A DNA stretch of 64,000 nucleotides from a virus. This document shows positions 8,547-39,699 of the stretch, piece by piece (the first letter of the stretch is position 1; each line of letters opens with the position of its first letter). Both the position numbers and the translations under genes were made by a program. Location: the IMG/VR virus record IMGVR_UViG_3300010224_000001, positions 160,001 to 224,000 of that record. One strand, written 5' to 3'. The notes under the pieces were generated by a model. It was not told the origin of the DNA, ran no database searches, and worked only from the letters and a program-made list of their open reading frames with translations.

Positions 8547-8551
8547 AGCGT

Positions 8552-8597
8552 CATAACTCCCTACTCTCCGCTGGTCTGGAGAGTAGGGGTTTTATGA
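8552..8597. terminator. Bidirectional hairpin terminator between convergent genes
   Basis: cataactccctactctcc-gctggtct-ggagagtaggggttttatg. Confidence 0.8.
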
Positions 8598-8601
8598 TCT
8601 A

Positions 8602-11991: not shown

Positions 11992-12585
11992 TTATTTCGT
12001 GTAAGGCATAGACTCAATAGGTGGGGTAAATTTGATTCTATCAGTTTCACCCGAGACGATGGAATCTGTTATACCTACTACAAACACCACTGGTTGGTCA
12101 ACCGATGTCTCTGGAATAAGTTCCTTAGAGTTCATGACCTTAAAAACAAGATGAAACCATAGCTTACAATGGAGCTTGTCAGGTTCACTATCCAACAGTT
12201 GCCGGTATTGTTCAAGCGGATGTAGATAAGGTTGGTATATTGGATCGTTAAATGCAATTTTTCTAACTGTCTGTTCAGCATCGTGTAGAAACATTTTTAC
12301 AAATTCGTCTCCTGCATATAAGTCAGGAAATTGATGAATCGCTTGATCCATTAATTTGTTTACAGTTTCTTCGATTAATCGAAACATATCTTTCTTGTGA
12401 TTGATTTGTTTCTCTGGGGTATTTTTATAGTAACCTAATGGAAAGTGGACTTCAGCTTTACAGTATACACCGGGTGACTTTTCTTGATCGACCGGAGTAA
12501 GTTTAACTTCCCTTACAGCCGTGAGAAAGTTATTCTCTAAATCATTGGCGGCTTTGGCAACTAGTTTCTTGATGAAATCAGACAT
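11992..12585 (-). CDS. Hypothetical protein (paralog family B)
   Basis: MSDFIK...LTPVD...NDPIYQPY. Confidence 0.75.
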   Translation of the reverse strand: MSDFIKKLVAKAANDLENNFLTAVREVKLTPVDQEKSPGVYCKAEVHFPLGYYKNTPEKQINHKKDMFRLIEETVNKLMDQAIHQFPDLYAGDEFVKMFLHDAEQTVRKIAFNDPIYQPYLHPLEQYRQLLDSEPDKLHCKLWFHLVFKVMNSKELIPETSVDQPVVFVVGITDSIVSGETDRIKFTPPIESMPYTK

Positions 12586-15825: not shown

Positions 15826-16595
15826 GACGGTTCCTCACCAAACAATTCATCGAACAGAAGCTCAATGGATTTCATTGCAGCTTCAATGTCGTAATACAGA
15901 TAAACCTTCTCTTCGTAGAGCGGATTACCGGTCTGTACGAACTCCATCAGAAGCTCGCCTGGCATTTTACGATTCTTTTCTTTATCGTAATTAACCACGT
16001 ACCCGTACCGAGCTAATACATAACCCTTTTTGATGAGGGTGTCAATCAACTCGTAAGCAAGCGCGGTATTGGATCCTCGATCACGTTCGCCATCTGCATC
16101 AGGATGTTCGTAAGCGTAGTTATACGCAACTGTTTGTACTTGTTTGAGATCAGTCTCAGGAGTCATGCTGACATCCTGGAGTAAAGTCTCGACATCGTAA
16201 TCAAACTTGTCTTTATAACCTTCCTTTGTCCCAAGCGCCAAGACCGTCATGGACAGTTCTTCAATCTTGCTGTTGCCAGCTTGATTGATAAGGCGCACGC
16301 AATTAACAAGACCAGTTTCTTCTTTATTGATGATGTTAATATCAGGTCCAGCCGCCGCGAACATGAGTTCCATGCTACTGGCGAATACCTCATGATTAGC
16401 CAGCCGATGTAATGTTTCGTAAAACATCGCTAGCGTGAGATTATAATCATTTTGCGTAGTACCTTTCAGCATACCGTCAAAATGGTCAATGTAAATCTTA
16501 GCACGCTCTCGAATCGTGTTGTTGGCATTAGTGAGGTCTTGTTTGATTTGTTGGCGTTTAGCGAGAGCGTCTTGAAAGTTGGTAATGTTTATCAT
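15822..16595 (-). CDS. Hypothetical protein
   Basis: 257-aa ORF, ATGA-coupled to the downstream gene. Confidence 0.7.
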   Translation of the reverse strand: MINITNFQDALAKRQQIKQDLTNANNTIRERAKIYIDHFDGMLKGTTQNDYNLTLAMFYETLHRLANHEVFASSMELMFAAAGPDINIINKEETGLVNCVRLINQAGNSKIEELSMTVLALGTKEGYKDKFDYDVETLLQDVSMTPETDLKQVQTVAYNYAYEHPDADGERDRGSNTALAYELIDTLIKKGYVLARYGYVVNYDKEKNRKMPGELLMEFVQTGNPLYEEKVYLYYDIEAAMKSIELLFDELFGEEPS

Positions 16596-16600
16596 TTTAG

Positions 16601-16975
16601 TTATTCCTTATCCGTCATCGTTTTTAGCATTTCCGGGACTCGGTAGACTTCATTGTAGAAGTGATCTATCGTAAGCTTAGGATCAGTGATGCTGTAGAAA
16701 CTACGGATCTCTTCTTCCGTATACAAACCGGAATCAAGAAAACCGCTCATCTCTAATGTATCTTTAAACGTTACGTCTTCGAGATCCTGTAATTCCATCT
16801 TAGCCAGCATGGCCTTAGCCATTGCTACTGTAGCGTCGAAATGGATCATGTCTTCCGATACTTGATCAGGAGGCAGCATCTTTGCGCGTAGCTTCTCCAT
16901 ATCGAAAATACTGCGGCGTATCGTCGCGATGTTACTACGCACGGTTTGGGAGCGAACACATTTACTTCGCAACAT
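16601..16975 (-). CDS. Hypothetical protein
   Basis: Start reassigned to MLRSK after AAGGAG. Confidence 0.65.
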   Translation of the reverse strand: MLRSKCVRSQTVRSNIATIRRSIFDMEKLRAKMLPPDQVSEDMIHFDATVAMAKAMLAKMELQDLEDVTFKDTLEMSGFLDSGLYTEEEIRSFYSITDPKLTIDHFYNEVYRVPEMLKTMTDKE

Positions 16976-16985
16976 AACAGTCTCC

Positions 16986-17528
16986 TTAATCAAACAGTTC
17001 TTCAGCAGAGATGGAGGGTCGTTCACGATAGTCATCGTAAGCTTGAGCATGTGCTGCTGCAAAACCGTTGTTTTCAGTTGTGACGATGGGGTGATCGAAA
17101 TTCCAGTTGTACTTATCGTACTCGTTGGATTTATAGTCCGTCACGTAACGATCATCGTTCTTCTGAGGATCGTATTGCGGAATCAAAACCATTGCCGGTA
17201 CGCGACCATGCCCTTTATCTAGCATCTGCAAAATGCTATTAGCAACGCCGTGACAGAGTTCGCTCTGCGTGAGATGCAGAGGCTTGTTATTCGCCCAGTC
17301 TTCCGCGATGTACCAAGCCTGCACGCCAATCTCATTAGCCTGAAGATCATCGCTAGCGGGTTCCATGGGATTGGAAGCGTCCGGATCTTTCTGCTGATCC
17401 AACACAGTAGACCTGACACCCACACCTTGTGGTTTATAGCTGCCCGGTTTTACGACTTCTTCGATCACTCGGTCTATATCACTGCGACCAATCTGATCTA
17501 CGCTGAGTACTTTTCCATCGACTTTCAT
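16986..17528 (-). CDS. Hypothetical protein (paralog family C)
   Basis: WYIAEDWANNKPLHLTQSELCHGVA...SAEELFD. Confidence 0.8.
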   Translation of the reverse strand: MKVDGKVLSVDQIGRSDIDRVIEEVVKPGSYKPQGVGVRSTVLDQQKDPDASNPMEPASDDLQANEIGVQAWYIAEDWANNKPLHLTQSELCHGVANSILQMLDKGHGRVPAMVLIPQYDPQKNDDRYVTDYKSNEYDKYNWNFDHPIVTTENNGFAAAHAQAYDDYRERPSISAEELFD

Positions 17529-17555
17529 GTCACACTCCTTTCTAAGAAGCTACAC

Positions 17556-17978
17556 TTAAATCTTGACGATCTTACGGAAACGACCGCCTACGGCAAAGTT
17601 ATTGATCAGTTCATGCACTGCGTTCGATTTACTTACAGCACCCATTGTGACGCTATGTTGCGTAACTTTATTCTTGACAATGAATTTTGCAAATCGCAGT
17701 GACACAGTTTCTGGCTGGGTACTCTTATTGAGTTTAACCTCGACAAAGCTGTCCATCTTCATACCGAGATCACGGCATGTGAATTTGACAATACCCATCG
17801 GCGCATAATCGCCATTGAAATCAAAGTCGATTTCTGCGGTAGCTTCGAGTGAGCCACTTACGTCAGGGAAGTAGATGCTGCGAGGAGTGCGATTGTTTCG
17901 CAATTCATCAATGAGAGGAAGCATGAAGTTAAATTCTTCACGGTTTTCCAGCTTAGCTTCGTTGATAATAACTTCCAT
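17556..17978 (-). CDS. Hypothetical protein
   Basis: ORF in operon. Confidence 0.65.
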   Translation of the reverse strand: MEVIINEAKLENREEFNFMLPLIDELRNNRTPRSIYFPDVSGSLEATAEIDFDFNGDYAPMGIVKFTCRDLGMKMDSFVEVKLNKSTQPETVSLRFAKFIVKNKVTQHSVTMGAVSKSNAVHELINNFAVGGRFRKIVKI

Positions 17979-17986
17979 TGTTCTTG

Positions 17987-18409
17987 TTACCTTTTCTTGT
18001 TCGTAAAAGTTGATTCAGACAGACTAAAAGAGCGCACAATGCGTTCGAAACTACCCTCAGGGGTAATCTCAAACACAAAGGCGTAAATCGTTTTGGGGCG
18101 CTGTATGTTCTCGCAAATGCGTAACACCAGCTGTCCTGGAATGTTGGACATCCAAGTCAAAGACGCTTTGATCTCGGCTTCTTCGTTATCAAGCTCTTTC
18201 TTGATGCTGAAAACGTAAGTCGCAATCGTATCGGTAATTTGTTGTTTGAGCGCTTTGTTAGGAGTGCAGGTGCGAATCAAATCTGCTAGTGTATCGGCAG
18301 TGGTCCACATCACTGCATTTTGCATGTAGAGGAAAATGCCAGGATGTTCATTTCCTCGGGTAGCACGCATGAAGTTTCTAAACCAGATCGGTTGTTCGAG
18401 CGAATACAT
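17987..18409 (-). CDS. Hypothetical protein
   Basis: ORF in operon. Confidence 0.65.
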   Translation of the reverse strand: MYSLEQPIWFRNFMRATRGNEHPGIFLYMQNAVMWTTADTLADLIRTCTPNKALKQQITDTIATYVFSIKKELDNEEAEIKASLTWMSNIPGQLVLRICENIQRPKTIYAFVFEITPEGSFERIVRSFSLSESTFTNKKR

Positions 18410-18444
18410 GTAAGCTTCTTTCTTGAGTTTTTAATAAACAGGAG

Positions 18445-18558
18445 TCCTCTGGCTGACTCTCTAATGGTAATCTGGCATTCCTCAATTTCAGGATTCCTGC
18501 TGCTGATCGCTCCACTACACGATTCACTTGACAGGCTAGCTGGGTCTACCCGGCCCTT
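18445..18558 (-). ncRNA. Putative TnpB omegaRNA (reRNA) scaffold plus guide
   Basis: Minus strand gggccgggtagacccagctagcctgtcaagtgaatcg...cgatcagcagcaggaa resembles IS605/IS1341-type reRNA scaffolds, directly 3' of tnpB. Confidence 0.65.
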
Positions 18559-18574
18559 GTAAAGTTAAAGTAAT

Positions 18575-19753
18575 TTATCTAGCGAAGCTAAATTCTGAAG
18601 CCTTGTTGTAAATATTCATAGCTGCCACTACATCAGCATTGTTAGAATATCCGCAATCAATGCAACAAAACTGTGATTGTGTCTTACGATTCTCTTTAGC
18701 TACAAAGGAACAGCTAGGACAAGTTTGACTAGTGTGTTTAGCGTTTACAACAGCTAAATAAGAACCATACCAACCACACTTGTAGGAGATTTGTCTTAAT
18801 AGCTCACCCCAACCTTGCTGTAGGATAGAGCGATTAAGTCCTCGTTTCTGAGCCACATTCCTACCAGGCTGTTCAATCGTACCTCTAGAACTCTTTGACA
18901 TTTGAGTAATCTTCAAATCTTCCATAATCACCGCGGCGTGGTTTTTGCTGATGTAAGATGAAAGTTTGTGAAGAGTATCATTACGCATGTCGGAAATACG
19001 TTTATGTTGCTTTGCTACTTTAAGTTTTGCTTCGTCGTGATTACGAGAACCTTTGACTTTACGAGTAAATCTTTTCTGTAAAATCTTGAGCTTTTCATAA
19101 GTTTCTCTCATTCGAGGATTATGATCAGTTATCTTGACTAGAGATCCATCAAAGGTAGTTGCTAGATGAACAATTCCAACATCAACTCCTATCGACTTAT
19201 TTGAAGTATTATATCTTTTCTCAATCTCGATTTCGCACAGAACGTTCGCATACCAGTGACCGGCTCTGTGCGAGATGGTAATTGACTTCGGAATACCTTC
19301 TAACGATCTATCTTTTCTATACTTAACTAACCCTACCTTTGGTAGCTTTAAATGCTTTTCTCTAATTTCGAAATATTGAGGAATCCTAAATGAATCACTA
19401 ATACCTTTCTTTTTGAATTGAGGGTAATTAGATTCTTTTCTAAAAAAGCGTTGAAAAGCCATACCAAGATTAGCAAGACTCTGCTGAAGGACTTGTCCAG
19501 AGCAATCGTTTAACCAGAAAGTATCAGGATTTTTCTTAAGTAACACTAACTCATTGCTTAATGAAAATACATTTACACTGATACTTTGCTGATGAAGTTC
19601 TTTCCAGCGCGCTAACCCCCAGTTATAAACAAAACGAGAACAACCGGAGAATTGCTTGAATATTTTCTCTTGTGCTGCATTACAGTCAAGTTTATATTTA
19701 AACGTTTTGTTGATTTTATTGACCCTTCTAGAAGGGTCTGATGAAACTATCAT
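18575..19753 (-). CDS. tnpB: TnpB RNA-guided endonuclease (IS200/IS605 family), no tnpA nearby
   Basis: N-terminal HTH (FSGCSRFVYNWGL), RuvC-I GVDVG, RuvC-II IMEDL, Zn finger CPSC...CIDC, RuvC-III NADVVAAMNI; AAGGAGG RBS. Confidence 0.92.
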   Translation of the reverse strand: MIVSSDPSRRVNKINKTFKYKLDCNAAQEKIFKQFSGCSRFVYNWGLARWKELHQQSISVNVFSLSNELVLLKKNPDTFWLNDCSGQVLQQSLANLGMAFQRFFRKESNYPQFKKKGISDSFRIPQYFEIREKHLKLPKVGLVKYRKDRSLEGIPKSITISHRAGHWYANVLCEIEIEKRYNTSNKSIGVDVGIVHLATTFDGSLVKITDHNPRMRETYEKLKILQKRFTRKVKGSRNHDEAKLKVAKQHKRISDMRNDTLHKLSSYISKNHAAVIMEDLKITQMSKSSRGTIEQPGRNVAQKRGLNRSILQQGWGELLRQISYKCGWYGSYLAVVNAKHTSQTCPSCSFVAKENRKTQSQFCCIDCGYSNNADVVAAMNIYNKASEFSFAR

Positions 19754-19795
19754 CTTTACCTCCTTTGAAGAAAGATAATCGTAGTGTATATGTTA

Positions 19796-19814
19796 GTAAT
19801 ATATACTTGAAAAA
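19796..19814 (-). promoter_or_regulatory. phiKZ-type early promoter upstream of tnpB
   Basis: Minus strand TTTTTCAAGTATATATTAC contains the exact TATATTAC early consensus of phiKZ. Confidence 0.7.
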
Positions 19815-19835
19815 CTATCTAGTCTAAAAATGAAC

Positions 19836-19885
19836 AAAAAAAAGAATAGCCTAAGCCATTCTTTTTGTAGACCCGAAGGTCTACG
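19836..19885 (-). terminator. Tandem hairpins/terminator
   Basis: gtagacc-ttcg-ggtctac, then aaaaagaatggc-ttag-gctattcttttttt. Confidence 0.7.
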
Positions 19886-19891
19886 TTTATA

Positions 19892-20056
19892 TCAAGCACA
19901 CCACCAAGGACGTTTCCATGGATCGTTAGAACGAGCACAGATGAAAGCTTCGGTGCGTTCAATGGCGGTGGGTTCCTTACCAGTCTTTCTGCGGTAAGTG
20001 TCCAAGCACTCGCGATAAAGCGTGGCAGCTTTACCTTTGAGTTGAATGATTGCCAT
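19892..20056 (-). CDS. Small hypothetical protein (54 aa, not in ORF track)
   Basis: MAIIQLKGKAATLYRECLDTY...PWKRPWWCA, GGGAG RBS. Confidence 0.6.
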   Translation of the reverse strand: MAIIQLKGKAATLYRECLDTYRRKTGKEPTAIERTEAFICARSNDPWKRPWWCA

Positions 20057-20067
20057 TAGACTCTCCC

Positions 20068-20328
20068 TTATCCTGAAACCACGTTGAAAGTCTTATGAAA
20101 GTCCACAGCGGTGTAGACCTCCGTCAGTTCTTTGTTGGGCATCTTGACAACGAAGTTGCCAGGACGAACCATCACTGCATCACGGAGCATGTCCATCTGG
20201 CTGGCGTTGACCCATGCAGTGCCATTCTTATCCGTAGTGACAAGACGACACTTTACGCCTGGCTGCCATTCCCAGGCTTCACCCTGAACAACTATGGGTT
20301 CTACCTTGAGCTTTGCAGTAGTTTTCAT
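20068..20328 (-). CDS. Hypothetical protein
   Basis: Start reassigned to MKTTAK after AAGGA. Confidence 0.65.
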   Translation of the reverse strand: MKTTAKLKVEPIVVQGEAWEWQPGVKCRLVTTDKNGTAWVNASQMDMLRDAVMVRPGNFVVKMPNKELTEVYTAVDFHKTFNVVSG

Positions 20329-20329
20329 T

Positions 20330-21616
20330 TTAGTCCTTCTTATTAGGGTCCGAGGTAAAATTACCTTCTTCGGTTTCACCATCATCGATGTAGGTAGTTT
20401 TATCGGACAACATTTCATCTGAACCAGGATCGTTATCAGCAAACTTCACAAGCAGTAATTCATCATCGCCAATGTATGGAATGAGGCGACTTTTCAGATC
20501 ATCCCTGGTAAACTTGACAGTTTCTGGAAGACCTTTAACGACCTCACTGATAAGTTCCTGACGATGTTTCAGACTACCATCATACTCCATAACCTCATCG
20601 CCTTCGCGCGGAATATGTTTTTCCGCGTTAGCCATGAGTTGCTCCTGCTCCATCCTTGCAAACTTCTGCTTGAGAAGATCACCCAAGCTAGGTGGATTAC
20701 CTTGTTTGTCTTTAGGACGAGTAAGCTCAGCTGGAGATTCGAGAAACGCGCCAGCAACTGCGCTGTTGCATAACTTAATTGGTTTTCCATCTTCTCCGGT
20801 TGGTGGAAATGAGAACATTCCCGGAATGAATGGACTGTCAGAAGTATCGTCAGATGCGACAAGATCTGCGGTGACATCGTAGTCACGATAACCGCTAGGA
20901 ACATACTTGTCAGCGTCATCGAAAATTACAACCGCACGAGGAATGGAATCCAAAGCATTCATGGATTTCATGATGTCTCCGTCATATTCTTCCTGCGCTG
21001 TATAAGCTTTCATGCGGCACTTCGGAATAAGACGTTTGACAACTTGATGAAGCTTCTTCTTGCTAACATGGTAACGATGCGGGCCATCAAATGTTTTGGT
21101 TGGCTCAATGACTTTGACGATATGCGTGTCGAAAATCATACCGACGAGTTTCTCATGATTCACAAGCTCGTCAGGTTTCATGTACTTATTAGAAACGTAC
21201 ATGACCAAATCATCGAAGGCACTTACATCGTAATAGGAAGGGTGCTTGATCCAACCGTATTGAATCGCCAGGTAATTCTCTACCTCCCAGAATTCTTTGA
21301 AGAAAGCACTGTCGTCACCGTTATCGATCATTGCCACACCTGGAGCACGGTGAGTGATCTCCAACACATTCAAAATGCTATATGTTTCTGGTTCAGCATT
21401 TTCTTTTGGAGTGTACCAAATATGCGCCATCGGTTTGCCGGTGATGACGTAATTGTCCGGCGTGTTCTTACTCAGCTTCTGAACTTCCAGCTTGATGTGT
21501 ACAGCGTCAATTACCTTTCCATCAGAATGGCTGTATGCTTTAACCACAGCGATTGTACCTTTGCTGAAGAAGGCAGGCGAGAACTTACGACGATACGGAT
21601 TAAATTTGTTGCTCAT
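20330..21616 (-). CDS. Hypothetical protein (paralog family D)
   Basis: FSPAFFSKGT...ITHRAPGVA...SKKKL shared with 21662. Confidence 0.75.
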   Translation of the reverse strand: MSNKFNPYRRKFSPAFFSKGTIAVVKAYSHSDGKVIDAVHIKLEVQKLSKNTPDNYVITGKPMAHIWYTPKENAEPETYSILNVLEITHRAPGVAMIDNGDDSAFFKEFWEVENYLAIQYGWIKHPSYYDVSAFDDLVMYVSNKYMKPDELVNHEKLVGMIFDTHIVKVIEPTKTFDGPHRYHVSKKKLHQVVKRLIPKCRMKAYTAQEEYDGDIMKSMNALDSIPRAVVIFDDADKYVPSGYRDYDVTADLVASDDTSDSPFIPGMFSFPPTGEDGKPIKLCNSAVAGAFLESPAELTRPKDKQGNPPSLGDLLKQKFARMEQEQLMANAEKHIPREGDEVMEYDGSLKHRQELISEVVKGLPETVKFTRDDLKSRLIPYIGDDELLLVKFADNDPGSDEMLSDKTTYIDDGETEEGNFTSDPNKKD

Positions 21617-21661
21617 TTTGATTCTCCTTTATTGATTATTAACAGCTAAATAGTGAATGGA

Positions 21662-22564
21662 TTAGGAAAAGAAATCGTCGCCGAAATGTGCTTCCATCAT
21701 GCGGTCATCTTCGCGAGCACACATGTCGCACATCATTCCGGTACCTTTATTGACATAGCGTTCATAACAAGTATTGCAAACCGGGATATTCTTGCTACAG
21801 TCACCCGGATCTTCCATCATCATCTGTTTATGACCGTGTTCATTGACTGTTTCGAAACGAATAGCGCGGTCGTCTTCACGATCATCCGGATCATCATGCA
21901 AGTGTTCCCATTCACGGTCGTTTTCGTCTTGTGCCTTGTATTGATTCATCAAGCACTTGTTGAAAACACGTTTGATGGCTTTACGCAGCTTCTTCTTATT
22001 GACAGAAGACATGTAACCCCAATCGACATTATCGAGATGGAAGATGTGCTGTTGCCTCAACAACGAAACCATCTTTTCCACATCGATGACGTGATCCATG
22101 GAGTTAGCTATTTCGAAGGCAATGCCGCCGACTAGTCGATTAACGTCCATCACCTTGTAGCGCGAATGGTGTTTTACTTCAGTCGGATCATAGCAGCGCA
22201 TGTTGTTCTTGACGTTTTCGTCAAAGAACTCCTTCAGATATTTCTTGTTCGGCACGCCATAACCGTGACCGGCTTCATGAACCACTGCGACGCCTGGAGC
22301 GCGCTTGATGATCTTCCTCACGTAGCAGATGTTGAACGCTTCGTTACACCCCGTAACATCCTTGAACACCGGAGTTTCCAGGATGTAACTGTGAGGACCA
22401 TTCTTGATCAGCCGCTTGACCTCAATTGTCAGATCGCCGCCACAGACGTTGACAACGCAGGTTGTACCTACGGTAAAGAAAGCGGTCGAGAACGGATGCG
22501 TTTCTTTACGTTCTTTACGGGAATTCTTGTATTCGTTTGATTTGGTATTGACTTGAGTGTTCAT
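21662..22564 (-). CDS. Hypothetical protein (paralog family D) with C-terminal Cys cluster
   Basis: FSTAFFTVGT...IIKRAPGVA...NKKKL; CNTC...CDMC. Confidence 0.75.
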   Translation of the reverse strand: MNTQVNTKSNEYKNSRKERKETHPFSTAFFTVGTTCVVNVCGGDLTIEVKRLIKNGPHSYILETPVFKDVTGCNEAFNICYVRKIIKRAPGVAVVHEAGHGYGVPNKKYLKEFFDENVKNNMRCYDPTEVKHHSRYKVMDVNRLVGGIAFEIANSMDHVIDVEKMVSLLRQQHIFHLDNVDWGYMSSVNKKKLRKAIKRVFNKCLMNQYKAQDENDREWEHLHDDPDDREDDRAIRFETVNEHGHKQMMMEDPGDCSKNIPVCNTCYERYVNKGTGMMCDMCAREDDRMMEAHFGDDFFS

Positions 22565-22605
22565 GATGGACTTTCCTTTCTAATTGGTTATTAAGAGTGC
22601 AGCAT

Positions 22606-23145: not shown

Positions 23146-23232
23146 GGGGATTCCTTATAGTTGATTATTAGTTAACAGCATAAATAAAAGGAGAGTGATA
23201 CCGTTATTCTGGTATCACTCTACTGGGTTGTA

Positions 23233-25680: not shown

Positions 25681-25764
25681 GATAAATCCTTTCAGTTTTG
25701 TAATTGGTTATTAGTAAGTGAATAAACATTTCGATAGAAAACACACAGTTCTCTATTCACGCCA

Positions 25765-25782
25765 ATGATATATATCTGAAAA
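25765..25782 (-). promoter_or_regulatory. Putative early promoter
   Basis: TTTTCAGATATATATCAT on the minus strand, just after a terminator. Confidence 0.55.
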
Positions 25783-25846
25783 TTTTTATCGCCATACAAA
25801 AAAATAAAGAGGGCCGGAACCCTCTTTATTTATGCTGCTTTATTTT

Positions 25847-30316: not shown

Positions 30317-30391
30317 CTTTCTATTTAAGGTTGATGGGAAGGTGGTCCTTCCTTCTTATTGGTTATTATAAAGTACAACGAAGGATGCTAC

Positions 30392-31090: not shown

Positions 31091-31207
31091 TTTTGTTATT
31101 CCTTATTATCGACTAGCGGAGTCACCCAATTACGTAGTTGGGTATTTTTAGAAATCAACGAGACGGCATAAAAGAGAGGGATTTCTCCCTCTCCTTATGA
31201 TGCTTTA

Positions 31208-36973: not shown

Positions 36974-37612
36974 TTACTGGTAATCCAGCGGTTGTGGAGA
37001 AGCTGACTTAAGATCGTCTTCAACATCAGCGACAATTGCTTCGAGAGTAGAAGCATAGAAGTCGTAGGAAACGACAGGTGTATAAGGATAGTAATACAGC
37101 TTACAAATATTACCTTGTTCAGACACCTTAAGACGTTCTTCTGTGCTAACAAAATCTTCGTCCTCAACCTCCGTTATGCTAAGAAACGCACCAAGGTCGT
37201 GACCACTACTGAACTGAGGATTATACTGAATGCCTAGTGAAGTGTTATTGTCCTGATGTACGATGAGTGTTTTGAGAAGACGTTCAAGTTTATGGATATC
37301 TACTTGAGCTGGTAGATTAGCTTGACCACGACCAAATACGCGCGCAACAACAGTCGTCAGAAGTCGATAAAGATTGTCACTGTACAGAGTGAGAACAGGT
37401 GCATCTTTACTCTGCATATAAAACTTCCAGACAGTGTTAGTCTGAATCGCATTATCTCGATCGATTGGGGAAGACCAATCTTTATCGCTCCATTCTCTAC
37501 TTACTTCTTCCACAGTTTGATAATTCAGACGTGGACCATTGTATTCCAAGAATACAGAGATGTTGTTATCAGTAATTCGTTTAAACAGAGCGTCAAGAAG
37601 TTGGATGTTCAT
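36974..37612 (-). CDS. Hypothetical protein with internal duplication
   Basis: ORF; YYYPYTPVVSY motif; the two halves are similar. Confidence 0.65.
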   Translation of the reverse strand: MNIQLLDALFKRITDNNISVFLEYNGPRLNYQTVEEVSREWSDKDWSSPIDRDNAIQTNTVWKFYMQSKDAPVLTLYSDNLYRLLTTVVARVFGRGQANLPAQVDIHKLERLLKTLIVHQDNNTSLGIQYNPQFSSGHDLGAFLSITEVEDEDFVSTEERLKVSEQGNICKLYYYPYTPVVSYDFYASTLEAIVADVEDDLKSASPQPLDYQ

Positions 37613-37628
37613 TATAATTCCTTTTTAT

Positions 37629-37877
37629 TTAGTCATCAGAACCGAAATCAAAATCTAGATCCCAGTCGCTATCGTGATTGCAACAGTGACTTGAACCACC
37701 ACCTGATGTACCTGAGAACATACCTAGGGAATAGAAGAACACTACTGCAAACACAATACACAATACGATCGCTACAAACAAACCAGGAACACCGTATTCT
37801 CCAAGTTTTGGAATAAAAACCGTGTAGTGTAGAATATTCAGTGCTACTGCAAAAATAAACTTCAAGATCGATTTCAT
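37629..37877 (-). CDS. Small membrane protein
   Basis: Two TM helices; paralog of 37906. Confidence 0.6.
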   Translation of the reverse strand: MKSILKFIFAVALNILHYTVFIPKLGEYGVPGLFVAIVLCIVFAVVFFYSLGMFSGTSGGGSSHCCNHDSDWDLDFDFGSDD

Positions 37878-37905
37878 GTTGTTGTTATTCCCTAGTTAAT
37901 TCTAG

Positions 37906-38100
37906 TTAAGTAGTGATTGTTTTCTCTTCTGGCTTAATCATGCCGATCGACACCAGGAAGACAGCTGCGAAGAAGAAAGTCAAAACAATAGCGATGGCGA
38001 TACCTATCGGTCCGGTCGTTTCCAAACGATGGAACACAAAGGCGTGGAAGATCACGTTAAGCATGATCGCGGTCAAGACGTCTAGGATAACCATCATCAT
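37906..38100 (-). CDS. Small membrane protein
   Basis: Two TM helices; LN..H..VF..L...G..G..IAIVL shared with 37629. Confidence 0.6.
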   Translation of the reverse strand: MMMVILDVLTAIMLNVIFHAFVFHRLETTGPIGIAIAIVLTFFFAAVFLVSIGMIKPEEKTITT

Positions 38101-38588
38101 TGTTCTGTTCCTTTCATAAGTTCAAAAGCTTTCTCTAACGATTCGCCGAGATTGAGGTAGTAACCGTTTGGATCTTTACTCCATGGGTTACCGCCAAAGA
38201 CACCAGCAACCTGATGAAGCGAGATAGGGATGGCCAGCGTTATGCCTGGAAGGTACAGAAGATCCTGCGCAAACCAGGTACGCAATTCATCATCGTAGTG
38301 ATCATAAATGACAGCAGCACCCAGACGGGTATTGACTGCAAGAATACGACGACCATGATCGCTGATAGCACGGACAACTTTACCGTAGGGTAGCGAAGTA
38401 AAGTCCGAATGATAAACAGCAGCATCCATCGATGTGTGTTTGTTATCCGGAATCTTAGTTTCCCATTCAGCATTGAAATCGATAGTATCAGTAACTTCCG
38501 TCCAACGCATGGTAAAGAACTCTACGATCTCACGATCACGTTGAATATATGCTGGTACGTTAGACATCGGTATCCTCCTCAAAGTCAT
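38097..38588 (-). CDS. Hypothetical protein
   Basis: GRRILAVNTRLGAAVIY motif. Confidence 0.65.
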   Translation of the reverse strand: MTLRRIPMSNVPAYIQRDREIVEFFTMRWTEVTDTIDFNAEWETKIPDNKHTSMDAAVYHSDFTSLPYGKVVRAISDHGRRILAVNTRLGAAVIYDHYDDELRTWFAQDLLYLPGITLAIPISLHQVAGVFGGNPWSKDPNGYYLNLGESLEKAFELMKGTEQ

Positions 38589-39699
38589 TCATGCAGTTCT
38601 TGATATAGTCAATCACTTCCCAGCGACCGTTCTCGACTACCCATTGTTCAAAGCTATGCCAACGAGTATCTTTCAGCGGTAAGCTATTCTTGCAATAGGT
38701 CATGAATCGACCCAGCTTCTCGCCAGAGTAACCAGTCGTCTCACTTACCAGCTTACCATTCCAATGCTGCTTAGCTTGACGCTTGATGATTTCGACGGTT
38801 TCGATATTCTTGTATTCTGCTTCCAGACCAGGAAACGTAGAATAAGCCACCACCAAGAAACCATTTCGTTCCGTATTACGACGATACAGATCATAGTCAG
38901 TCGCATTCTTCGGATCATAAACATGCCAGGCAGATTTATCCAGTTCTGGTTTATCAGCCATCCATTCCAAGAAACCACGATAAGAAGAACGTTTTGCATC
39001 ACGAGCGCGAGACTTGTGGTTACGATTCTCCAGCTGGAACGGTAGACGGCTAAAGTACTGCGTCGAAGCTGCATATTCGTAAACTTCTTCCAGGGTATTG
39101 AAGCCTTGTTTGAAACGATTGTAATCGTAACCCAAGAAATCAAACACCTTAGCAGTATCACGACTTACGAGGATCTTACCAACAACCTCGTCTTCAACAC
39201 GCACTTCTTTCCAGAAACCATCCCAACCGTATTTGAAGCCCATGCGCTCAGCGATACGACCCATGAAATTACCGAGGTCATTGAAAGCATAATAAACACG
39301 AGCTGCGTGGAATTCATTGCGGTTTACAAGGATGAGATCAACCTGCAGACCTTGCACGTCAAACGAAACCGAGAAGCAATCTGGACTTACTTCAGGAACA
39401 CTGTCATCCCACTTGTAAGAAAACGGTGAGCCACCGAAACGATTCACCACCATGTTCTGCGGTGCGAATGCTTTGTGAATGATGCTGATCCAGTTGGCAG
39501 GCAGTTCATCGCGTTCGAGGATGATGTCGCCATCGCCAAAGCTTTCTTTATTAGCATAAGCTTTGACAGGAGCGAGCATGGACCAGGAAAACATATTGCT
39601 GAGTTTCCAGCAAGTGCGTTCCATGATGCGATGATATTCGTCTGCTGGCTTACGACCAGGCTTGACATCGTAAGTTTGATCTACGGCATTACCACCCAT
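38560..39699 (-). CDS. Pol-beta superfamily nucleotidyltransferase
   Basis: KESFGDGDII and QVDLI motifs, NDLGN..GR. Confidence 0.7.
   Translation of the reverse strand: MGGNAVDQTYDVKPGRKPADEYHRIMERTCWKLSNMFSWSMLAPVKAYANKESFGDGDIILERDELPANWISIIHKAFAPQNMVVNRFGGSPFSYKWDDSVPEVSPDCFSVSFDVQGLQVDLILVNRNEFHAARVYYAFNDLGNFMGRIAERMGFKYGWDGFWKEVRVEDEVVGKILVSRDTAKVFDFLGYDYNRFKQGFNTLEEVYEYAASTQYFSRLPFQLENRNHKSRARDAKRSSYRGFLEWMADKPELDKSAWHVYDPKNATDYDLYRRNTERNGFLVVAYSTFPGLEAEYKNIETVEIIKRQAKQHWNGKLVSETTGYSGEKLGRFMTYCKNSLPLKDTRWHSFEQWVVENGRWEVIDYIKNCMNDFEEDTDV

Follow-up and report, generated by a model that had tools for sequence, protein, structure and literature searches.

The 64,000-nt stretch analyzed here (the window: bases 160001-224000 of the 322,570-bp IMG/VR virus record IMGVR_UViG_3300010224_000001, which has terminal repeats and is called G000 below) contains a tnpB gene followed by the scaffold of its guide RNA. 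With a probability that we put at about one half, we read the two as a phage-adapted cassette that behaves as a transposase-independent, promoter-riding homing-type element. The nuclease is intact, its shortened scaffold is conserved, both transposase hairpins are lost, the promoter site before the gene belongs to the phage's own family, and relatives of the cassette occupy other places in other jumbo phages. Because the parts serving the transposase have been lost and the cassette is wired to an early-type phage promoter, it probably spreads between related phages as a homing endonuclease would. TnpB, from which Cas12 descends, is usually regarded as a transposase helper. The carrier encodes chimallin (PF25677, 145.5-146.3 bits, and also phrog_4795; main gene at 37226-39160) together with a multisubunit-type RNA polymerase (RNAP) beta gene (phrog_3295, E 2e-202), and G000 is therefore a jumbo phage of the nucleus-forming type.

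The product of tnpB matched three Pfam families above their curated cut-offs—HTH_OrfB_IS605 (52.7 bits), OrfB_IS605 (78 bits) and Cas12f1-like_TNB (70.8 bits)—and its closest solved structure was that of ISDra2 TnpB (8H1J, E 3.4e-54), aligned over residues 15-385. The catalytic motifs read SIGVDVG, IMEDL and NNADV. In an alignment of the protein with its 12 best relatives, all 13 sequences were full length, and D191, E278, D374 and C345/C348/C364/C367 were invariant, which bears out a claim of the original prediction, made earlier from the letters of the window, that all three RuvC acidic residues (in GVDVG, MEDL and NAD) are kept. Compared with the closest TnpB for which DNA context is available (locus L082), non-synonymous divergence (dN) was 0.40 and synonymous divergence (dS) was saturated. 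The G+C content of tnpB, 36.9% against 46.2 +/- 3.6% over 161 G000 genes, is the lowest of all, and for this reason the gene looks like a visitor, not an old resident. In the phage carrying L082, the other complete carrier, tnpB is compositionally foreign too (39.6% versus 54.2 +/- 4.5% for the genes of that genome), and the tnpB genes of two further loci, L002 and L003, likewise fall under the G+C content of their contigs.

The original prediction had also described the locus as free of tnpA, and this description extends to the whole phage: the Y1 transposase family (PF01797) had no match in the entire 322,570-bp record, nor in the record carrying L082 (controls positive in 6 of 14 genomes), and serine recombinases (PF00239) were likewise unmatched throughout G000 (controls positive in 12 of 14 genomes). 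The genome holds one tnpB and, according to a covariance model, one guide-RNA scaffold, so that the multiple recent copies by which an ordinary insertion sequence (IS) was to be recognized are missing. Taken with the absent end hairpins and the shortened guide RNA described below, these results agree with the proposal that the element is not a conventional IS.

Downstream of the tnpB stop codon, three helices with compensatory changes are common to four phage loci. When a fifth locus and the pseudoknot are included (in G000, GGUA at 18550-18547 with UGCC at 18477-18474), 90.5% of the alignment cells are paired and seven pairs are changed on both sides—a degree of pairing reached by 0 of 500 shuffles, with slid controls at 27-48%. 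No Rfam family scored above chance for this region (best RybB, E 0.14). The scaffold ends in ...GCCAG(AT), and by formal alignment it measures 86-89 nt in the five jumbo-phage loci versus 134-165 nt in seven long-type relatives. What the phage form lacks are two hairpins of the long type, the terminal one included; this 9-bp right-end subterminal hairpin was present in all seven long-type relatives and in none of the five phage scaffolds. At the other end, the 42 nt from the promoter core to the tnpB ATG contain no hairpin next to the candidate target-adjacent motif (TAM), in line with the earlier claim that no IS left-end hairpin could be recognized and unlike the bacterial left end. We take the lost hairpins to be TnpA binding sites, on the basis of what is established for IS200/IS605 elements and of the likeness between left and right hairpins. 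The loss is old, given that four more phage loci (41-58% identity) are hairpin-less in the same way.

The long type was reached through a 35-nt scaffold pattern, which matched 12 bacterial or archaeal loci, nine of them in Aquaspirillum serpens DSM 68. In each of these nine copies the longer scaffold runs through the 9-bp terminal hairpin into AGGATGTCAA, and thence into nine differing flanks. The Aquaspirillum genome contains 23 TnpB pieces (best 45% identity) and at least nine right ends, and Y1 TnpA matches in the bacterial carriers of the long form numbered 9 (Aquaspirillum) and 4. The left end of the Aquaspirillum element starts after TTTAT, as seen at two distinct junctions, and has a hairpin similar to that of the right end about 140 nt before the ATG. 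As side observations, an unrelated, GC-rich viral contig of 37.9 kb (L175 in G006) has a long-type right end on its own, hairpin included and tnpB absent, and at another locus (L229) a long-type right end adjoins the apparent 3' end of a tnpB.

The flanks of the nine Aquaspirillum copies diverge right after the scaffold, and the register with these copies set the scaffold end in G000 (18472 or 18470). The guide predicted from the phage DNA that follows had no other match with <=2 mismatches in the G000 genome, and guide sequences differ in all five phage loci. Covariance and repeat scans found neither an array nor a second guide; no CRISPR array and no tandem or spaced repeats are present within window positions 16500-21500. 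The transcript is likely to have its 3' end at a terminator-like hairpin that overlaps the distal guide. We also considered, and rejected, a specific direct repeat linking the guide flank to the promoter of the cassette, 2155 of 5000 shuffles being as high in G000.

The site upstream of tnpB genuinely belongs to a promoter family of the phage itself. The original prediction had placed an exact phiKZ early-promoter word, TATATTAC (19796-19803), and the ribosome-binding site (RBS) AAGGAGG (19759-19765) behind an upstream terminator; word and RBS are both there on the minus strand, and positions 19866-19839 form a terminator-like hairpin with a T-run. The identity of the word with the phiKZ consensus is putative, the text of one phiKZ report not containing it (PMC8244752). 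The exact word is not an enriched signal, since it occurs 7 times in G000 against about 16 expected from base composition; enrichment was found instead for a wider family, TATAT[CAT]A[CT] plus a T-tract. Seventeen seeds, chosen by eye among 36 TATAT[ACGT]A[CT] sites, have a common context that begins with CTAGA or CTAAA and a T/A tract, continues with CAG and three bases up to the core, and has TA after the core and TG a few bases further on. A full-length matrix built without the tnpB site returned 21 G000 sites above a threshold of 12 bits, all on the minus strand, versus 1 in a shuffled genome. On a proximal matrix (-13 to +3), derived from 19 other sites, the tnpB promoter scored 21.2 bits—a value reached by 17 G000 sites (16 seeds and the tnpB site itself) and by none in three shuffled genomes. 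It is only this proximal part that matches the family strongly; in the distal part CTAGA is off register by 2 nt, and TG is absent. An RBS-preceded open reading frame (ORF) lies within 260 nt for 16 of the 20 family sites, with 42-212 nt from core to start, the tnpB distance being 42 nt. As an observation on the family at large, every member (about 20 sites) is on the minus strand.

Our name for the family, early-type, is given by analogy: chimallin and RNAP beta of G000 are among the genes that it precedes. The earlier claim of a phage early promoter thus stands as to membership in a promoter family, and early timing is suggested by analogy. In jumbo phages with RNAPs of their own, a phage-specific AT-rich motif is visible bioinformatically and, as the available text of one paper states, has proved to be an early promoter wherever tested (PMC7598289). 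The early promoters of phiKZ are described in the accessible parts of two reports as an AT-rich -10 element with an upstream T-rich tract, in about 28-32 copies (PMC8244752, PMC7598289); the first of these adds that early leaders are mostly 31-40 nt long and that one early promoter lies before the chimallin gene PHIKZ054 (PMC8244752).

Two further features stand between the upstream gene and this promoter. The 11-mer CATTTTTAGAC occurs twice in the 322,570 bp, both strands counted—once upstream of the tnpB promoter and once in the chimallin promoter—and the copy near tnpB may be what is left of half a second promoter. The first of two hairpins closing the upstream unit (19885-19866, a perfect stem with a TTCG loop) was considered as an IS left-end hairpin, with the TTGAT that overlaps the upstream stop codon serving as TAM. 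We dropped this candidate because the hairpin lies upstream of the terminator and the promoter, resembles the TTCG-loop hairpins that G000 uses in its own terminators, and has no counterpart at L082; the second hairpin (19866-19839) is the terminator-like one followed by the T-run.

To place the cassette among its relatives, we compared the protein with 5.8 billion others, and the best matches had 70, 69, 62 and 58% identity, the 62% one being encoded on a 141-kb contig. The closest TnpBs with DNA context were L082 (58%), L002 (47%) and L003 (41%); a single scan of metagenomes gave relatives of <=47% identity among the matches listed, and those at 55-70% were not among them. L082 lies in G001, a 218,701-bp IMG/VR record that encodes chimallin, and seven ORFs next to it match G000 proteins encoded at 49-73 kb (29-49% identity), the G000 tnpB being at 178.6 kb. 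The repeated promoter motif of G001 differs from that of G000, consisting of a T/A tract followed by ACATAT[CTA]A (14 sites chosen by eye among 30 matches), and the G001 tnpB starts 31 nt behind a member of this family. On the L002 contig five neighbouring ORFs match G000 proteins (23-38% identity), and on the L003 contig one does (34%); a promoter family was not definable for the 11-kb L002 contig or for L003. The gene context of tnpB is different in each of the four cases. A third chimallin phage, G005 (221,460 bp, an 82%-complete record), carries a short scaffold alone (L176, G005:13425-13521, minus strand) and no tnpB within that record. This scaffold is 62 nt behind a member of the G001-type promoter family, and the G001 junction that corresponds to its site is a promoter-gene junction without insert—in a pair of genomes that is colinear but diverged and distant.

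A cassette or its remnant was therefore found directly behind a family promoter in all three phages with a definable family (G000, G001 and G005). The promoters are of the type native to each phage, unlike the compositionally foreign tnpB, and the simplest reading is that the promoter is the resident and the cassette a comparatively mobile guest that ends up directly behind early promoters. Scored as the 3' half of a promoter, the DNA right after the scaffold reached 7.99 bits at L082 (top 0.13%) and 5.29 bits at L176 (top 0.67%). In a 72-row TnpB tree, an 18-row group (Shimodaira-Hasegawa-like approximate likelihood ratio test, SH-aLRT, 98) holds all four TnpBs placed on jumbo-phage contigs. 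One row of this tree, Aserpens_L189, represents a wrong ORF (the longest frame, branch length 4.56), and its placement is meaningless. At large, TnpB matches were present in 631 of 50,697 phage records, and TnpB is likewise reported as common in phages in the available portion of another study (PMC12607003).

Searches for closer relatives of the G000 locus returned little. Megablast of positions 17000-21500 and tblastn of the two flanking proteins found none in the 50,697 phage records, and IMG/VR peptide scans with a flank protein and with TnpB alone found no relatives either. Three sequencing runs contained only 7-9% of the sampled words and gave seven short contig pieces, none on tnpB and none with a joint. 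A looser DNA pattern run against IMG/VR gave seven loci: five chance matches, one long-type right end and one locus already known.

On the reading that we favor, the virion RNAP would probably start at the early-type promoter (core 19803-19796) and make one transcript comprising tnpB and the 89-nt scaffold. Processing of the tnpB mRNA by TnpB itself is described in the available part of an earlier report (PMC10278001), and the G000 protein would be expected to turn its transcript into a guide RNA whose 16-20-nt guide equals the downstream phage DNA (~18471-18450). The guide being adjacent phage DNA, the likely target is the same promoter-gene junction in a related genome free of the cassette; the 140-aa downstream ORF is probably the gene that this promoter served before the insertion. 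During co-infection, TnpB would cut the empty allele, and repair by recombination with the occupied genome would then copy the cassette into it—homing without TnpA, which would damage or convert the competitor phage. The TAM may be the ..TAT that closes the 5' half of the promoter core, judging from three junctions; the candidate letters are TATAT in G000, CATAT in G001 and G005, and TTTAT in the bacterial relative. Cleavage and homing by the G000 protein are in this sense predicted from the sequence. A role of TnpB as a homing nuclease is established according to the accessible sections of two papers (PMC10055086, PMC10690162), and TnpB-dependent, TnpA-independent spread is discussed under the name 'non-restorative homing' in the part available of a third (PMC13565253). 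A more specific version, which we hold only tentatively and consider clearly less likely than not, sees a lineage specialized on the early promoters of chimallin phages that spreads by RNA-guided cutting of unoccupied promoters, with the 5' half of the core (..TAT) as TAM. With such a TAM the element would always land at a start site of the virion RNAP, and it could dispense with a promoter, a transposase and hairpins of its own; the nuclease-RNA complex would have to gain access to the DNA either before the phage nucleus forms or within it.

Several observations weigh against homing. Pure homing keeps one locus, which leaves the varied locations of the cassette (G000, G001, G005, L002 and L003) unexplained. 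No empty-site allele at the nucleotide level and no close relative of G000 emerged from the searches described above. The tnpB promoter has only 9.0 bits on the full-length matrix, the lowest of the set, and the right flank in G000 is not promoter-half-like (-1.9 bits, top 9%). Context is established for 4 rows of the 18-row clade, with 14 proteins unplaced, and the covariation of the scaffold comes from five sequences only. Selection on the cassette is not strict, given that G005 has lost tnpB, and the chimallin shell may separate co-infecting genomes or exclude TnpB.

The original prediction had proposed a domesticated weapon, that is, an early phage gene whose guide is directed against the chromosome of the host, against a plasmid or against some unrelated phage. 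An intact nuclease, an early-type promoter and the loss of the transposase parts would all suit such a role, and phage-borne TnpB-derived systems directed at other DNA do exist, as the available text on TldR indicates (PMC10705468). The guide, however, is adjacent phage DNA with no second match in the genome and differs in all five phage loci, which runs counter to a programmed attack on a host chromosome or plasmid; moreover, no array or second guide was found. The comparison with related phages, which the original prediction had put forward as a check on domestication, also turned out against it: the position of the cassette is not conserved, gene contexts differ, tnpB has been lost in G005, and in G000 it is the lowest-GC gene of the genome. 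We regard the weapon as unlikely—even though a homing-type element could still hurt co-infecting relatives. It is improbable in our view that the cassette is instead a decaying remnant—the relic of an IS inserted behind a promoter, which has been stripped of its ends and is still expressed as a passenger without function. The shortened ends point that way, and so do the scaffold-only locus of G005 and the solo long-type right end in another viral contig; a decaying gene is nevertheless hard to reconcile with 13 full-length proteins with invariant catalytic residues, with a dN of 0.40 at saturated dS against L082, with compensatory changes that keep the shortened scaffold in five loci, and with a position behind a family promoter in three of three phages.

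We hold it to be very unlikely that the cassette is an ordinary tnpB-only IS (IS1341 type) that inserted recently and is mobilized in trans by the TnpA of a host: bacterial members of the family are such elements, the gene is compositionally foreign and TnpB is common in phages (the 631 of 50,697 records), but both end hairpins are absent, G000 has no second copy or mini-element, and the hairpin-less form in the four other phage loci makes the loss an old one. Just as remote is an RNA-guided regulator whose complex would bind partly matching early promoters, its own included, and tune early transcription without cutting. The resemblance of the guide start to a promoter 3' half at L082 and L176 is what such a regulator would need, but the RuvC triad is intact, the likeness between guide and promoter in G000 is not significant by the shuffles given above, and in neither G000 nor G001 does the guide flank match the promoter of the cassette best; in G001 that promoter only ties with another one.

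Set beside known systems, the G000 protein resembles ISDra2-type TnpB (IS200/IS605, IS1341-type; 8H1J, 8BF8, 8EX9) in its three domains, RuvC triad and zinc finger, and in a guide RNA encoded at the 3' end with its guide templated by the flank. It departs from that type in the 86-89-nt class of its scaffold, as opposed to 134-165 nt, in the lack of a transposase-binding hairpin at either end, and in being a single-copy cassette under a phage promoter in a genome without TnpA. Homing as proposed here is like 'non-restorative homing' (PMC13565253; Meers et al. PMC10055086), in which, as outlined in the available text, an unoccupied allele is cut and the element recombined in without TnpA. The general idea of TnpA-independent homing is already in print there; the accessible portion treats plasmid populations and leaves phages a theoretical case (PMC13565253). 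What differs is that this would be a phage lineage of elements to which, on our proposal, no other route is left. PhiPA3 gp210, an intron homing endonuclease, is likewise a selfish nuclease encoded by a chimallin phage and able to harm a relative during co-infection, as the available part of its description says (PMC11620839); it is a protein-guided HNH nuclease inside an intron of an RNAP gene, whereas the G000 TnpB is RNA-guided and lies in an intergenic leader behind a promoter. TldR, some of them in prophages, are RNA-guided repressors that, like the G000 cassette, represent a TnpB lineage outside the transposon life cycle; per the text available, they have lost the RuvC activity (PMC10705468), whereas D191, E278 and D374 are kept here. 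Cas12j (CasPhi) of huge phages (7ODF, a weak match, E 8.7e-08) is similarly a compact RuvC nuclease of TnpB descent, but it works with a CRISPR array, and the G000 locus has no array or repeat. A search of the literature collection at hand found no paper combining TnpB and chimalli*, and nothing equivalent on TnpB with jumbo phages or on TnpB with homing and phages. The cassette represents a natural TnpB lineage that has dropped its transposase parts and kept an intact nuclease and a minimal 89-nt scaffold under an early-type promoter of a jumbo phage. If it does home, RNA-guided nucleases would be able to live as free homing genes in phages, and the lineage would offer a handle on gene flow and competition among nucleus-forming phages as well as a compact natural guide scaffold for engineering.

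Table 1. Features of the tnpB cassette and its flanks (positions in the window).
Feature	Position	Strand	Details
Downstream flanking ORF, 140 aa	17987..18409	-	No Pfam or PHROG match
Terminator-like hairpin GAGTC..GACTC (18459-18442), then CTGTTTATT	18431..18459	-	Terminator scan; overlaps distal guide
Predicted guide, about 16-20 nt	18450..18471	-	Starts 18471 or 18469; templated by flanking phage DNA
Shortened omegaRNA scaffold, 89 nt	18470..18558	-	Three helices and 4-bp pseudoknot; covariance model 95.9 bits
tnpB	18575..19753	-	392 aa; RuvC D191/E278/D374 triad and zinc finger intact
Leader, 42 nt	19754..19795	-	RBS AAGGAGG 19765-19759; without hairpin; unlike bacterial left end
Early-type phage promoter	19793..19816	-	T-tract, CAAGTA, core TATATTAC (19803-19796), TA
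11-mer CATTTTTAGAC	19822..19832	-	Identical to proximal element of chimallin promoter
Two hairpins closing upstream unit	19839..19885	-	Terminator scan
Upstream flanking ORF, 54 aa	19892..20056	-	ORF list; no Pfam or PHROG match

Some features of the carrier beyond the cassette were noted along the way. A second, divergent chimallin-like gene is encoded on the minus strand (L215:1738-3438, equal to G000:264737-266437), with phrog_4795 at E 3.7e-22 and a Pfam score of 26.8 bits, marginally below the cut-off of 27. Directly after most terminator hairpins of the G000 genome stands TTATGACGT or TTATGCCGT—for example at window positions 8547-8601, 12051-12100 and 31091-31207—and TTATGACG is the top enriched intergenic 8-mer of the genome, 27 of its 42 copies being intergenic. 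The terminator hairpins of G001 are likewise trailed by such motifs, which may be a late-type TATG promoter set right behind terminators. Another motif, TAATAA(T/C)CAAT, recurs a few bases 5' of the RBSs of minus-strand genes (window positions 21617-21661, 22565-22605, 23146-23232, 25681-25846 and 30329-30391), and a motif akin to it, ..CAATCATTCA.., is found in leaders of G001 and G005. Finally, the adjacent minus-strand genes at 20330-21616 and 21662-22564 encode proteins of 428 and 300 aa that both match phrog_16056, have N-terminal motifs in common and look like local paralogues.

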